From positions 12,650,001-12,710,000 of the forward strand of contig OZ076409.1 in NCBI GenBank assembly GCA_964187785.1: a stretch of 60,000 nucleotides of DNA. The letters are read 5' to 3'. Made by a program: the position numbers and the translations under genes. Positions 25,096 through 37,801 of the stretch are shown piece after piece. Every line of letters starts with the position of its first letter. The stretch's first letter is position 1. The notes under the pieces were generated by a model. That model searched no databases and was not told the origin of the DNA. It saw only the letters and a list, made by a program, of their open reading frames with translations. The DNA comes from Amphiscolops sp. MND2022 (lineage: Eukaryota).

Positions 25096-25808
25096 TGTAG
25101 CATACAGAGCTAAGCAAACAGGAAATGACTTTTATATATGAATACTGCTTAATACAAATACAGTGTACACGTATACACTCTGTTGCTATATACACATCTA
25201 TATATTAAAAAAAATTAACTGCGTTGCTTAATATACATTGTAACAATGGGTGTGCACATTTTACTTTTTAAACAAATTTTACAAACAATTATCCAGGCAG
25301 TTCCAAGCAGTGTGCAATTTAAAAACCCTCGTGGTCGTTTCTAAAATTTCAGCTGCCTTGCAGTAATAAATATTTTGTTGAGTCTGATTCAACTTCCCCT
25401 TTTTTCAGCTGCCCCTTATTTAAAGCTGCTCTTATTATTTTATGCGCCCAATTCAGCTGCTCTTTTATTTATCATTCATCAAAAGCCCCACTCTTACCCA
25501 GTGCAGGATTAATTATTTATACGTTTCTTGCACCTGCAGAAGTATCTTCAGAAGCAGAAAATTATCGAAGCCATAATTTCATCCATCAAGCCAAATGTAA
25601 GTTGTGTTTGTTATTTAACATTTTTGATCAGTAAAAATCGTTTTTTTTAAAATTGAGTTTTCATATTCTTATAGATTTTTTTCTTGTCCTTTTTTTAGAA
25701 ATATCCACTAGTCACTTTTGAAAACAAAATATATCCATTTACCCTAACAATCGCCCCGCGCATCGAAAGTTGAAACGAATAGAAATCTAGTAAAAAGCGA
25801 TTGTTAAA
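25096..25808 (+). repeat. 5' LTR (713 bp)
   Basis: TGTAGCATACAGAGC...GCGATTGTTAAA; by eye differs from the 3' LTR by two substitutions and one T in a homopolymer. Confidence 0.96.
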
Positions 25809-25809
25809 A

Positions 25810-25827
25810 TGGTGACAAGGGTGGGAT
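25810..25827 (+). promoter_or_regulatory. Primer binding site, tRNA-Leu type
   Basis: TGGTGACAAGGGTGGGAT one base after the LTR; matches the TGGTG-CA---GTGGGAT pattern of tRNA-Leu 3' ends. Confidence 0.75.
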
Positions 25828-26217
25828 ATTTGTAAAAAGAGAAGTTTTTTTTACAAAAAAAAAATTTAAAGTAACTTAGAACCCCCATCAAAACATTCTT
25901 AGTCCTAGACCCGATCCAAAAATTTTTTTGAAATGTGCCATTTCCTGGTTCGCCAGTGTTGCCCATAAGATTCCCAATCCGGACACGGTCCGTGCCTAGT
26001 TTTCCAGCTCAATGCTGTGTCTTTCCGCTTCGGCGTGTCTCAGGCTTTAAAATGGCACATTTGACCCAATGCCCTTAAGTGTTAAGAAGTTACACGGTAA
26101 GTGCTTGTCATAAAACAAACAGTAGCCAATTTTTTGTAACATTTCTATCAAAATAGTTCCGTTTTCTTTTTGATAACCTAAATTCTAATAACCGCCGCGA
26201 GTTTTTTTTTTGTTGAT

Positions 26218-26487
26218 ATGCCTTGTGCTCACAATACGCATTCTCACCTACCGTTGTACGTTTTTCCCCAACGACCGCTTCGACCATCAAGTCCTCCGCC
26301 CTCTTACAGCGAAACACGTGAAAGACCGATATTCACGCCCTGTTTTTTAAGTTTTCTACTTTTGATCCTCTGTTTTGCGCTTCTCTTGACCGTTTTAGCC
26401 CTTTGTGCGATGTCGTACGAAATCAACAAGATAAATATAACTTGTAAAGCACTTCAAACCCAAAGAGTGGACTATACGTCTCTGTAG
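26218..26487 (+). CDS. Small upstream ORF (89 aa): proline-rich PPPSY motif followed by one transmembrane helix
   Basis: ATG-initiated; SSPPPSYSE then IFTPCFLSFLLLILCFALLLTVLALCAM; lies in the element leader. Confidence 0.55.
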   Translation: MPCAHNTHSHLPLYVFPQRPLRPSSPPPSYSETRERPIFTPCFLSFLLLILCFALLLTVLALCAMSYEINKINITCKALQTQRVDYTSL

Positions 26488-26497
26488 GAGCGGCCTA

Positions 26498-26896
26498 ATG
26501 TATACTTTTAGCATACCTGTTTCCGTTTTGTCAAACACACCGCCTCAAAACTTCGTTATTCCTTGCTACTTCTGCCAAGTGAAACTTTTCAAAATTCCAT
26601 TATCGCATCAACCAGAACGTCGTTTTACGGCACATGAACTGTCGATTCATTTGCGTCTTGAGGCTATCCACAATTGGCAACATCGAAACGTTTGTTCAAC
26701 TTTCCCGTATGGTCGTGTTGATAACAATGCAAGTGTAAAAGCTTCCTGTGCGTCCTTTTTCCCTCAATTAGCCAATATTTGGGCTTCTCATATTCAATTT
26801 CTAGCAATACACGTAACGAATCCATTCTATTTGGTCTATCCCGACTGCAAACCACCTAGTCTCAATTTTGGTCCGCTGCGAATGGATCGCATGTGA
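26498..26896 (+). CDS. Second upstream ORF (132 aa) with possible zinc-binding Cys/His motif
   Basis: ATG 10 bp after the previous ORF stop; CYFC...HELSIH...IHNWQHRNVC; ends 41 bp before the gag ATG. Confidence 0.45.
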   Translation: MYTFSIPVSVLSNTPPQNFVIPCYFCQVKLFKIPLSHQPERRFTAHELSIHLRLEAIHNWQHRNVCSTFPYGRVDNNASVKASCASFFPQLANIWASHIQFLAIHVTNPFYLVYPDCKPPSLNFGPLRMDRM

Positions 26897-26937
26897 AACG
26901 TTCTAGACCTAACGTAGACTTTAAGCGTTCAAATACA

Positions 26938-35492: not shown

Positions 35493-35560
35493 TTTAATTG
35501 CTTAGCACATTTCTGTCTCACTGTCAATTTCAGCTTCTTTATCAACTACTTAGGATTTCC

Positions 35561-35856
35561 CTTCCTAGATGCTTTCCTACGCAGCTAGTGCCTGTTCTAC
35601 ACGTTTCCGTGTTACTTACGTTCCTCTAGGTTGCCTTTCCTTCCTAGTTGCTTTACTACGCAGCTAGTGCCTGTTTTACACGTTTCCGTGTTCCGTTACT
35701 TTCCCTTAGGTTGTCTTTTCCTTCCTAGTTGCTTCACTACGCAACTAGCGCCTGTATTGATACACGTTTCCGTGGTGAATCTCTTTTCGCTAAGCTGTCT
35801 TTTTCTCCTAGTTGCTTCGCTACGCAACTAGTGCCTCACAACACACGTTTCCGTGT
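35561..35856 (+). repeat. Four ~80-bp tandem repeats, each with a hairpin, between env and the 3' accessory ORF
   Basis: CCTAGTTGCTT-ACTACGCA-CTAG-GCCTG...ACACGTTTCCGTG repeated four times; CTAGTTGC/GCAACTAG is self-complementary. Confidence 0.85.
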
Positions 35857-35978
35857 CCGCAATTAAGTTTTTTCCTAATTGTTTAAACAATTAGTGTCTA
35901 GCAGATGCGTTTCCGCATCCTAAGTAGGATTTTCGTACAAAGTGTAATCGGTGCAATCAGTTTTTTTGTTGTTTCAGG

Positions 35979-37049
35979 TTCCAGTTTCCAGCAGCTCCAG
36001 TTCCAGCGCCCTTCCTCCTCAGCAGCGGCCGCGTGCAGCCTCTGGCAGAGGGATATGTAGTCCGCTTGTTGGACAAAGACGATTATCGTATCAAGAGAAT
36101 AAACCCCGCTACACAAACTGTTGTGCTACAAAAAATTAATTCAAGTAATCGTTGCTTTGCTCGACCAGCTACGGAAATCTGGCTTCCTCCTCCAAGCAGT
36201 AACAGCCTGAGCGTGGAAGTGGACTGTCCTCCCCCTCCAGCAATCTGTGATTGCTCGCCAGTACCCCCTAAATTAATAGTGGACACCTGCGATGTAGCAG
36301 TGGATGCGTCCCTCGACGCTGACGACAGCATGGAACTCTTAGTATCAAAGTTTTCTTCGGTTGGCGAACTCAATAAGGGTTTTGAAGAAGCCCGTGCAGC
36401 AGCTAATAAGGCTCGCATCGAGTGTGAGCATACGTTCGACCTCCTTTGCGAGGAAATGACTCTTCGGAAGGCAAAGGAAAAGGAAATTCATGAAGCAAAA
36501 ATCGAGCTCGCTGGTTTACAAACCAACATTGCTTCTCAAGTCGTCGCCCTCGCCGAAAAAGACAGTGAAATAGCCGCCCTGAAGACGCGCCTCAGTGCCC
36601 TCAGCGACGAAAACAGCTCTTTGCTGCAACACAGTCTCCAGCAAAGCGAAGAACTCTCTAACCTTAAACTAGCCGCCAACAGGGTTTCAGATGCCCATCT
36701 AACTACAGAAATGCTAATCCATCAGCTGTCAACATATGCAATTGACCTGGATTTCAATGATGACAACCTGTTCTTCGATGTTCTCGGACTGACACCAACC
36801 TCAGATGTTACCAAGATAAACATTCATGCTCGGCATCTCCTGCGCCTGGTCCACCCCGACAAGAATCCATCCATTCCAGCAGATGTCGCCCAACTTATTC
36901 CTTGCCTCAAAGAAGCTAAGAGCATCCTCACCGATCCCCAATTGAATAAAATATATCAATGTTGCGGTATGTCAGGTGTCCGCCGGGCTCGTCGCAAACT
37001 ACGGACTTGCATGGATTGCGACTCCCATATGTCAGACTGGTTCGAATAA
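35979..37049 (+). CDS. Accessory protein: coiled coil + LxCxE + C-terminal DnaJ (J) domain
   Basis: Open frame of about 356 codons ending 40 bp before the 3' LTR; FFDVLGLTPTSD..KINIHARHLLRLVHPDKNP....LKEAKSILTDP.LNKIY..CG matches the J-domain pattern with intact HPD (36852-36860). True start uncertain. Confidence 0.8.
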   Translation, partial: FQFPAAPVPAPFLLSSGRVQPLAEGYVVRLLDKDDYRIKRINPATQTVVLQKINSSNRCFARPATEIWLPPPSSNSLSVEVDCPPPPAICDCSPVPPKLIVDTCDVAVDASLDADDSMELLVSKFSSVGELNKGFEEARAAANKARIECEHTFDLLCEEMTLRKAKEKEIHEAKIELAGLQTNIASQVVALAEKDSEIAALKTRLSALSDENSSLLQHSLQQSEELSNLKLAANRVSDAHLTTEMLIHQLSTYAIDLDFNDDNLFFDVLGLTPTSDVTKINIHARHLLRLVHPDKNPSIPADVAQLIPCLKEAKSILTDPQLNKIYQCCGMSGVRRARRKLRTCMDCDSHMSDWFE

Positions 37050-37073
37050 ATTGGCTGGCGAGGACGCAGCCTC

Positions 37074-37089
37074 ACACGGGGGAGGGCAG
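37074..37089 (+). promoter_or_regulatory. Polypurine tract
   Basis: G-rich GGGGGAGGGCAG immediately before the 3' LTR TG. Confidence 0.85.
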
Positions 37090-37801
37090 TGTAGCATACA
37101 GAGCTAAGCAAACAGGAAATGACTTTTATATATGAATACTGCTTAATACAAATACAGTGTACACGTATACACTCTGTTGCTATATACACATCTATATATT
37201 AAAAAAAATTAACTGCGTTGCTTAATATACATTGTAACAATGGGTGTGCACATTTTACTTTTTAAACAAATTTTACAAACAATTATCCAGGCAGTTCCAA
37301 GCAGTGTGCAATTTAAAAAGCCTCGTGGTCGTTTCTAAAATTTCAGCTGCCTTGCAGTAATAAATATTTTGTTGAGTCTGATTCAACTTCCCCTTTTTTC
37401 AGCTGCCCCTTATTTAAAGCTGCTCTTATTATTTTATGCGCCCAATTCAGCTGCTCTTTTATTTATCATTCATCAAAAGCCCCACTCTTACCCAGTGCAG
37501 GATTAATTATTTATACGTTTCTTGCACCTGCAGAAGTATCTTCAGAAGCAGAAAATTATCGAAGCCATAACTTCATCCATCAAGCCAAATGTAAGTTGTG
37601 TTTGTTATTTAACATTTTTGATCAGTAAAAATCGTTTTTTTAAAATTGAGTTTTCATATTCTTATAGATTTTTTTCTTGTCCTTTTTTTAGAAATATCCA
37701 CTAGTCACTTTTGAAAACAAAATATATCCATTTACCCTAACAATCGCCCCGCGCATCGAAAGTTGAAACGAATAGAAATCTAGTAAAAAGCGATTGTTAA
37801 A
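37090..37801 (+). repeat. 3' LTR (712 bp)
   Basis: Direct repeat of 25096-25808, followed by GTAT. Confidence 0.96.

Follow-up and report, generated by a model that had tools for sequence, protein, structure and literature searches.

A multi-copy, envelope-carrying element of Ty3/Gypsy type in Amphiscolops sp. with a macrodomain in Pol, a J-domain gene, and two small genes ahead of gag

Ty3/gypsy elements with the order gag-pol-env and with an F-type or gB-type envelope protein are described from across the animal phyla, many of them as young copies (Chary & Hayashi, eLife 2026, PMC13524379; this and the other papers are cited here for selected passages). In the springer subclade of Drosophila elements, env is reported to obtain only the dinucleotide AU from an upstream exon (PMC12992720), Cer1 of C. 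elegans encodes the protein CERV, which is made from a spliced mRNA and is needed for export of the unspliced genomic RNA (PMC10309623), and fish epsilon-like retroviruses sometimes carry macro-domain ORFs (open reading frames) (PMC4977317, citing Basta et al. 2009). The present analysis concerns a 12,706-bp LTR (long terminal repeat) element at positions 25096-37801 of a 60,000-nucleotide (nt) stretch of the genome of Amphiscolops sp. MND2022 (GCA_964187785.1, contig OZ076409.1, positions 12,650,001 to 12,710,000 of the forward strand), henceforth called the window, to which all coordinates refer unless otherwise stated. Its six sense frames are named, in 5' to 3' order, ORF1, ORF2, gag, pol, env, and ORF6 (Table 1). 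We regard the region as very probably a young copy of a multi-copy, envelope-carrying, endogenous retrovirus-like element of Ty3/Gypsy type, which would be primed by tRNA-Leu and follow the coding plan and protein roles proposed below.

The assignment is carried by the anatomy of the element and by its Pol. The direct LTRs of the window copy are 99.6% identical, with two substitutions and an indel of one base between them, and are flanked by a short target duplication. The primer site TGGTGACAAGGGTGGGAT starts one base past the 5' LTR and pairs without mismatch with the final 15 nt, and the CCA, of a tRNA-Leu(TAG) whose gene occurs in this genome, and the polypurine stretch before the 3' LTR reads GGGGGAGGG(CAG). 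Searches of Pol against Pfam returned protease, reverse transcriptase (RT), RNase H, and integrase modules (the latter with H2C2, core, and p58-C) of the Ty3/gypsy kind and in Ty3/gypsy order; the likeness to complex retroviruses lies in the coding strategy only. Gag matched Retrotrans_gag and the CCHC knuckle, the C-terminal tail of Pol is rich in Pro/Ser/Thr/Gln, and intact gag, pol, and env, the mark of an envelope-carrying Ty3/gypsy element, occur in several copies that are >98% identical. These results agree with a sequence-only reading of the window, which had reported near-identical LTRs, a target duplication, a primer binding site, and a polypurine tract along with six uninterrupted sense frames (the frames were recovered where it had placed them), and had assigned them to a Ty3/Gypsy-type element with env and accessory genes, an assignment that the Pol modules, sister-family conservation, and selection well below neutrality bear out.

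Copies, sister families, and selection

The genome (approximately 1.07 Gb in 1,929 contigs, with the window on contig C1) was queried with the LTR, which resulted in 42 matches, mostly in pairs about 12 kb apart. Sixteen copies, i.e., the window copy and 15 others taken as two stretches each, were compared pairwise against the window copy and without a consensus. In 13 of the 16 copies, comparison of the two complete LTRs gave 99.0-100% identity, in two others it gave 95%, and in one further copy the pair was 99.1% identical over the 550 nt outside an N-masked part. The 4-bp target duplications differ between copies, which marks the copies as independent integrations of recent date rather than products of segmental duplication. 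Open frames were retained for ORF1 in 14, ORF2 in 13, gag in 12, pol in seven, and ORF6 (ATG to stop) in 12 of the 16 copies, as well as for the extended env frame (see below) in eight of 14 (two stretches did not cover env), and all six frames were open together in three of the 16, the window copy counted. The recent activity proposed from the window sequence was confirmed by the collection of genomic copies that had been suggested along with it.

Seven of the copies are mosaics relative to the window copy: gag and pol are at least 99% identical and env is 98.3-99.5% identical, while ORF6 (ATG to stop) reaches about 88% and the LTR about 90-91%. As this change in identity level takes place near the ORF6 ATG, recombination between two lineages is indicated. 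The primer site also occurs in two forms among the copies, matching either tRNA-Leu(UAG) or tRNA-Leu(CAG). The 3' end of tRNA-Leu itself gave 756 forward-strand matches genome-wide, most of them in a dense array on contig C8 (approximately 35.59-35.64 Mb) with spacings of mostly a few hundred nt, which may represent an array of tRNA-Leu genes or else a tandem repeat derived from a tRNA. On contig C10 (7920728-7938060), three LTRs stand in a row, comprising a full copy followed, approximately 3.9 kb on, by the third LTR together with ORF1 and codons 1 to 41 of ORF2; this may be a tandem or a recombinant arrangement. One short copy (C7) was considered as a reverse-transcribed spliced RNA and rejected as such, given that its deletion, from 29794 to about 37000, avoids the predicted splice sites.

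The gene set recurs beyond this family. A family B element (L041/L042), whose LTRs are 97.3% identical, has the same order of ORF1, ORF2, gag, pol with macrodomain, env, and ORF6, with protein identities to the window element of 46.5% (ORF1), 53% (ORF2), 66% (gag), 63-67% (pol), 62-87% (env), and 46% (ORF6). Family C, known from one decayed element, has kept ORF2 (38%), pol with the macro region, env, and ORF6 (37.5%), and a membrane-type frame lies directly before its ORF2, at the place expected for ORF1. Homologues of ORF1, ORF2, and ORF6 recur with the same relative spacing at many loci in diverged families, and genome-wide matches numbered 55 for ORF1, 71 for ORF2, and 144 for ORF6.

Selection was estimated as the ratio of non-synonymous to synonymous substitution rates (dN/dS) in pairwise Nei-Gojobori comparisons against the window copy. 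For ORF1, eight synonymous and 3-5 non-synonymous differences were counted against each of three diverged copies (dN/dS 0.11-0.18) and ten and seven, respectively, against C3c (0.20), with binomial p-values of 8e-4 to 4e-3. ORF2 differed from C3c by 33 synonymous and 16 non-synonymous changes (dN/dS 0.10, p 2.4e-11). The ratios for ORF6 from ATG to stop were 0.13-0.14 against the seven mosaic copies and 0.15 against C3c (binomial p 2.8e-15 and 4.5e-18), those for env were 0.03-0.22, and the codons of the macrodomain (0.14-0.39) were under similar selection as the remaining pol (0.14-0.35). If anything, these ratios are too high, because decayed copies contribute neutral changes. Judged by their sequence evolution, ORF1, ORF2, and ORF6 are real element genes; chance frames, the simplest other explanation for them, were rejected by conservation and dN/dS. 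The conservation with dN/dS below 1 that had been named beforehand as the check on the accessory frames was accordingly found, with sister-family homologues at 37-55% identity and ratios of mostly 0.1-0.2.

Table 1 Features of the element, all on the forward strand of the window
Feature	Position	Strand	Remarks
Target-site duplication GTAT	25092-25095 (5' copy); 37802-37805 (3' copy)	+	flanks both element ends
5' LTR	25096..25808	+	713 nt, TGTAG...GTTAAA
Main 5' splice donor AT/GTAAGT (predicted)	25595..25602	+	exon end 25596; last bases AU
Primer binding site TGGTGACAAGGGTGGGAT	25810..25827	+	18 nt; complementary to tRNA-Leu(UAG) 3' end
ORF1, small membrane protein	26218..26487	+	89 amino acids (aa); N-terminal PPSY (PPxY), one hydrophobic segment, NIT glycosylation site
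ORF2, small Cys/His protein	26498..26896	+	132 aa; CxxC, then conserved His residues
gag	26938..28158	+	406 aa; Retrotrans_gag domain and two CCHC knuckles
pol frame	28125..33065	+	1646 aa from first ATG; protease ~28245-28547, RT 29283-29765, RNase H 29952-30338, macrodomain insert, integrase 31392-32447
-1 frameshift site U UUA AAC (predicted)	28149..28155	+	directly before gag stop TAG 28156-28158
OARD1/TARG1-type macrodomain	30681..31097	+	pol residues ~853-991, between RNase H and integrase
env 3' splice site ctcctctgtttttcAG/G (predicted)	33144..33146	+	first exon base G is third base of in-frame codon
env coding exon	33146..35492	+	product ~782 aa; from first ATG 33360-35492 (710 aa)
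79-nt tandem repeat, 3.5 copies	35556..35836	+	between env and ORF6 acceptor; repeat number varies among copies
ORF6 3' splice site gtttttttgttgtttcAG/G (predicted)	35976..35978	+	G is third base of in-frame codon; boundary 35977/35978
ORF6 coding exon	35978..37049	+	~357 aa; J domain 36771-36956 with HPD; from first ATG 36330-37049 (239 aa)
Polypurine tract GGGGGAGGGCAG	37078..37089	+	adjoins 3' LTR
3' LTR	37090..37801	+	712 nt

Expression of pol, env, and ORF6

According to the proposed coding plan, a full-length RNA would carry ORF1, ORF2, and gag in tight succession, and Pol would be produced as a Gag-Pol fusion. The pol frame is -1 relative to gag and would be reached through a -1 frameshift at UUUAAAC rather than from its own ATG. 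A search for a stimulating structure in the 102 nt that start with the slippery site gave no folding signal above that of shuffled sequences (z = -0.36).

The predicted main donor in the 5' LTR stands in the context CCAAAT/GTAAGT (the slash marks the exon boundary). Between LTR and env, 17 donor-like sites were found, two of them perfect GTAAGT sites; the second perfect one (ACG/GTAAGT) lies in the leader at 26097, and among the 17 only the LTR donor gives an in-frame AUG (AU + G) at the junction. Its 10-mer was present in the 5' LTR of 15 of the 16 copies, including both LTR types, and the LTR of family B has GAAAT/GTAAGT. Downstream, the env and ORF6 frames both begin exactly at polypyrimidine-AG/G sites of identical phase. 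The exact 15-mer of the env acceptor was recovered from 14 of the 16 copies (the remaining two stretches do not cover the site) and that of the ORF6 acceptor from 15, and the ORF6 acceptor of family B (ttgttacAG/G) has the same phase as in the window. Since the donor ends in AU and both acceptor exons begin with an in-frame G, splicing would create an AUG for each gene, and we consider it probable that the start codons of env and ORF6 are built in this way from the one LTR donor. The two genes would then be read from two spliced subgenomic RNAs.

In both genes, conservation and selection reach further upstream than the first ATG of the frame, and start boundaries set at these ATGs are wrong. 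The upstream part of ORF6 (35979-36329) contains no ATG, was free of stop codons in 15 of 15 copies, and showed dN/dS values of 0.03 (26 synonymous and 3 non-synonymous changes), 0.10, and 0.12 against the three diverged copies; database relatives of ORF6 (286-381 aa, 44-98% identical) align to the window frame upstream of the first ATG. In env, the frame upstream of the ATG at 33360 is likewise open and without ATG, encodes ..FWFLFLFVRWSVLIFADVQFTTHLNDD.., and aligns to the N-termini of relatives that are mostly 750-800 aa long and begin with a signal peptide, and a signal peptide was found only in the upstream-extended frame. Of the initial gene models of the sequence-only reading, the locations of the ORFs therefore stand, and the 5' boundaries of env and ORF6 as well as the start of pol at its ATG do not.

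Translation of env and ORF6 without an AU/G junction, i.e., from a non-AUG start, via another upstream exon, or, for env, by read-through of the pol stop, appears unlikely. Read-through could draw on the shared frame of the two genes, between which lie only the pol TAA and 27 open codons (33063-33146), the same frame then staying open into env. Relatives of env carry their own ATG. The shared frame fits chance (about 1 in 3 for the frame times approximately 0.27 for 27 open codons) and is probably due to it; in the family B copy, the pol and env frames differ. Against these alternatives also stand the identical phase-2 AG/G geometry at the two window acceptors and at a third in family B, the perfect AAAT/GTAAGT donor conserved in both LTR types and likewise in family B, and the published precedent for AU-dinucleotide splicing (PMC12992720).

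Two further sequence features of the upstream region were observed. A strong acceptor-like site, tcctttttttAG/AAATATCC, follows about 100 nt after the donor (LTR 25597-25698) and is also present in the 3' LTR; given this position, the LTR may contain a small intron, or the site may serve as an alternative first acceptor. The leader contains several upstream ATGs.

Accessory proteins, Env, and their proposed roles

The insert between RNase H and integrase matched human OARD1/TARG1 structures with E-values of 6.1e-34 (2eee_A) and 1.1e-33 (4j5q_A), and the alignment with 2eee_A (query 94-232 versus chain 8-147, approximately 137 residues) spans the whole domain. In this alignment, ..LLTKE.. and TARG1 ..ITKK.. 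share an aligned Lys, and GCGND and TARG1 GCGLD an aligned Asp; these positions we take to be the catalytic K84 and D125 of human TARG1. Pfam Macro scored 17.4 bits on the whole of pol, below the cut-off of 22, and 22.3 bits on the insert alone. The insert was also found in eight other Pol proteins of the database, and a genome-wide search returned 990 first-look candidate loci, of which all of the 150 scored had E < 1e-32; many of these loci lie in open frames of about 834-846 aa whose domain is approximately 50% identical to that of the window. In P0128, a related database protein of 992 aa that stands for 923 member sequences, the macrodomain follows on protease, RT, and RNase H, and there is no integrase. 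Given P0128 and the abundance of the domain genome-wide, the fusion of Pol and macrodomain marks a large group of elements beyond the family in the window.

ORF6 encodes, from N- to C-terminus, a small beta domain, a disordered linker, a coiled-coil helix of about 120 residues, the J domain, and a Cys-rich tail. Pfam DnaJ was matched with 36.5 and 35.5 bits (cut-off 27.8), a profile of 11 ORF6 sequences retrieved J domains from the PDB (best DNAJC5, 1.1e-7), and in these 11 sequences H292, D294, K295, and N296 are invariant and P293 is present in at least 90%. The AlphaFold model (pLDDT, predicted local distance difference test, 62) comprises the beta domain at residues 10-70 (63-76) and the helix at residues 114-235 (mostly >85). 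Foldseek of this model against the PDB returned weak rows, namely the J domain of DNAJC5 (E 0.057) as well as the KOW domain of Spt5 and the Tudor barrels of PHF1, PHF19, and SMN (E 0.09-0.7), so that the likeness of the beta domain to KOW or Tudor barrels is taken as a hint only. A protein atlas search yielded no usable match for ORF6 or for ORF2. Both the macrodomain in Pol and the J domain in the last frame, which had been recognised from the window sequence beforehand, are substantiated by the E-value to OARD1/TARG1 on the one hand and by the DnaJ score, the kept HPD, and the DNAJC5 match on the other.

The Env product of the extended frame consists of a signal-peptide-like stretch (..FWFLFLFVRWSVLIFA), a furin-type RPRR site, a hydrophobic Ala/Gly-rich fusion peptide, and a C-terminal membrane anchor. 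Among 31 aligned env sequences, the R-x-R-R site and many Cys residues are nearly invariant; four of the 31 matched Baculo_F (best 3.4e-8), and one weakly matched Fusion_gly of paramyxoviruses (0.0089). The homologue P0049, 48% identical to the window env, passes Pfam Baculo_F with 29 bits (cut-off 24.1). The layout of an F-type fusion protein, i.e., signal peptide, short N-terminal subunit, multibasic site followed by the fusion peptide, and C-terminal anchor, is present in the window protein, whose assignment to the F-type is made through these homologues.

The two frames ahead of gag are small. In ORF1, PPSY occupies residues 27-30 and was present in 15 of the 16 copies, and the hydrophobic segment has a hydropathy peak of 3.06. 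ORF2 has 28 relatives at E <= 1e-3 in a representative library of 1.84 billion proteins, all of 79-295 aa; conservation among them takes in a CxxC pair and several His residues, and some are fused to an ORF1-like membrane segment. The structure model of ORF2 is compact and confident (pLDDT 81.5; predicted template modelling score 0.70), and no fold match was obtained from Foldseek against the PDB (best E 3.4), VIA-align wide (best Z 3.6), or BFVD (best E 0.96). Both frames could instead be leader features, either upstream ORFs that tune the translation of gag or short first exons spliced to env or ORF6, as is published for the ZAM and Beagle subclades of Drosophila elements, where env is supplied with a short peptide from an exon ahead of gag (PMC12992720). 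Their position between leader and gag with gaps of just 10 nt (ORF1 to ORF2) and 41 nt (ORF2 to gag) would suit this explanation, as would a weak in-phase donor within ORF1 and the lack of a known fold or family for ORF2. It is nonetheless quite improbable, as family B has both as full-length proteins of 46-55% identity in which PPPSY, NITC, the membrane segment, and the Cys/His residues are retained, the synonymous excess extends across the whole of ORF1 and ORF2, ORF2 has its compact model, and the donor within ORF1 is absent from family B.

That the J-domain gene and the macrodomain are recent passengers captured from the host, without a role in the element and drifting to loss, is highly improbable: both are of cellular type, with human DNAJC5 and OARD1 as best matches, and LTR elements are known to acquire extra ORFs (PMC5408684), but both domains occur in families only 37-67% identical in Pol, ORF2, and ORF6, evolve at dN/dS of 0.13-0.39, have retained HPD (J domain) and the aligned Lys and Asp (macrodomain), and the macrodomain lies in frame within Pol at hundreds of loci.

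If the accessory genes serve the element, as we propose, their domains suggest the following roles. With both presumed catalytic positions kept, the TARG1/OARD1-type macrodomain in Pol may strip ADP-ribose marks that host PARP-type defences set on proteins or nucleic acids of the element. The J-protein may recruit host Hsp70 via its HPD motif, and its coiled coil and small beta domain could steer Hsp70 to a target, e.g., in assembly, uncoating, or interference with the host. The PPxY of ORF1 might engage NEDD4-type ligases and the ESCRT (endosomal sorting complex required for transport) machinery for budding or for receptor down-regulation, and ORF2 might be a zinc-binding regulator, possibly for export of the unspliced RNA.

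Several points weigh against the element as reconstructed here. The donors, acceptors, frameshift, and transcript ends are all predictions from the DNA, and the protein roles are deduced from domains. A weak alternative donor (GTT/GTACGT) at 26256, 13 codons into ORF1, is also in phase; this is the site that family B has not kept. The env of family B has its own ATG 17 nt past its acceptor, so that the AU/G start is not general for env. The window env protein matched no Pfam family, and the J region of ORF6 was poorly modelled (pLDDT 34-50). All pairs in the dN/dS comparisons include the window copy and hence are not independent. For ORF2, the comparison with C442 was not significant (5.8 synonymous and 12.2 non-synonymous changes, dN/dS 0.58, p 0.19), and within the young copies 0-1 synonymous versus 0-4 non-synonymous differences were counted, a non-synonymous excess that is expected from decay after insertion.

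Outside the element, the G+C content drops from 0.42-0.46 to 0.32-0.43 in all 2-kb bins of the flanks except one, and no Rfam family was matched within the window. Two overlapping long frames at 1-2547 (+), one of them with Pfam DUF5641 (79.9 bits), which we take to be a domain of BEL/Pao-type elements, are probably the end of another retroelement. At 46867-53577 (-), exons of a host-type DEAD-box helicase (DEAD, Helicase_C) with four RanBP2-type zinc fingers were found, about 9 kb away from the element.

Comparison with described elements and proteins

Envelope-carrying Gypsy elements are already known as a kind, and what appears undescribed is the accessory set of this one (Pol macrodomain, spliced J-protein, PPxY membrane protein, and Cys/His protein) and, as predicted here, the use of one AU donor for two genes. 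The literature searched on macrodomain, OARD1, or DnaJ together with retrotransposons contained no description of Pol-macro fusions, of J-protein fusions, or of the set, the one related item on macro domains with gypsy and pol being the remark on fish retroviruses, and a retroelement-encoded J-protein was not found in the literature searched. Term searches of the main text of PMC13524379 gave no occurrence for any of the terms macro, DnaJ, J domain, accessory, and splic-, and its seven supplementary files (cells to 400 characters) held no match to the primer site or env peptides of the window. The sequence-only reading had ranked the element as the best candidate for an undescribed system in the window, which is overstated, as gag-pol-env Gypsy elements with F-type env are published (PMC13524379) and macro ORFs are cited for fish retroviruses (PMC4977317).

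It is a tentative and rather doubtful proposition that the element is the founding example of an animal clade of Gypsy-type retroviruses with a host-manipulation kit, made up of a TARG1-like hydrolase, a protein combining a Tudor/KOW-like barrel with a coiled coil and a J domain, a PPxY adaptor, and a shared AU-ending LTR donor. Macrodomains are counter-defence enzymes of several RNA virus groups. If the proposition were true, retroelements would join the RNA viruses, hitherto the known users of macrodomains in counter-defence. A conserved TARG1-type domain in Pol at hundreds of loci suggests that ADP-ribosylation restrains retroelements in the host as well, and the domain offers a handle to test this restraint. 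The J-protein of a retroelement would be a new route for elements to exploit host chaperones, and three cistrons before pol, a frameshift, and two predicted spliced messages that apparently share an AU donor would make the element a compact model of 'complex' expression outside the vertebrate retroviruses.

Among proteins, the J-protein can be set beside the T antigens of polyomaviruses, which are viral J-domain proteins with HPD. Both have a J domain with HPD in a virus or element and would recruit host Hsp70; the J-protein of the window differs in architecture (beta domain, coiled coil, and C-terminal J domain), belongs to another virus class, and has the cellular DNAJC5 as its best match. 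Human OARD1/TARG1 (PDB 2eee, 4j5q, 4j5r) is a stand-alone cellular enzyme, whereas the domain in the window is a polyprotein segment known from its sequence.

Among elements, the fish epsilon-like endogenous retroviruses are vertebrate Retroviridae with macro as an additional ORF (PMC4977317), in contrast to the fusion inside a Ty3/gypsy Pol in the window. Cer1, likened here by description, likewise belongs to the Ty3/gypsy elements of animals and makes an additional protein from a spliced mRNA (as predicted for the window element); this protein, CERV, is called novel, and the abstract names no J domain in it (PMC10309623). With gypsy, ZAM, and springer of Drosophila (Senti et al., EMBO J 2025, PMC12992720), the element would share a spliced subgenomic env, and its Env, assigned to the F-type through homologues, has the same succession of signal peptide, furin site, fusion peptide, and membrane anchor. 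Unlike these three-ORF elements, it has a macrodomain in Pol and two ORFs before gag, and its donor appears to serve a second gene, that of the J-protein (PMC12992720). With the 'ancient errantiviruses' (PMC13524379), the element has in common the gag-pol-env order, an envelope of probable F-type, copies that are >98% identical, tRNA-Leu among the primers, and a Ty3/gypsy-type Pol, and it differs from their described organisation by two ORFs before gag and one after env, and by a 'bridge' between RNase H and integrase that holds a full OARD1-type macrodomain.

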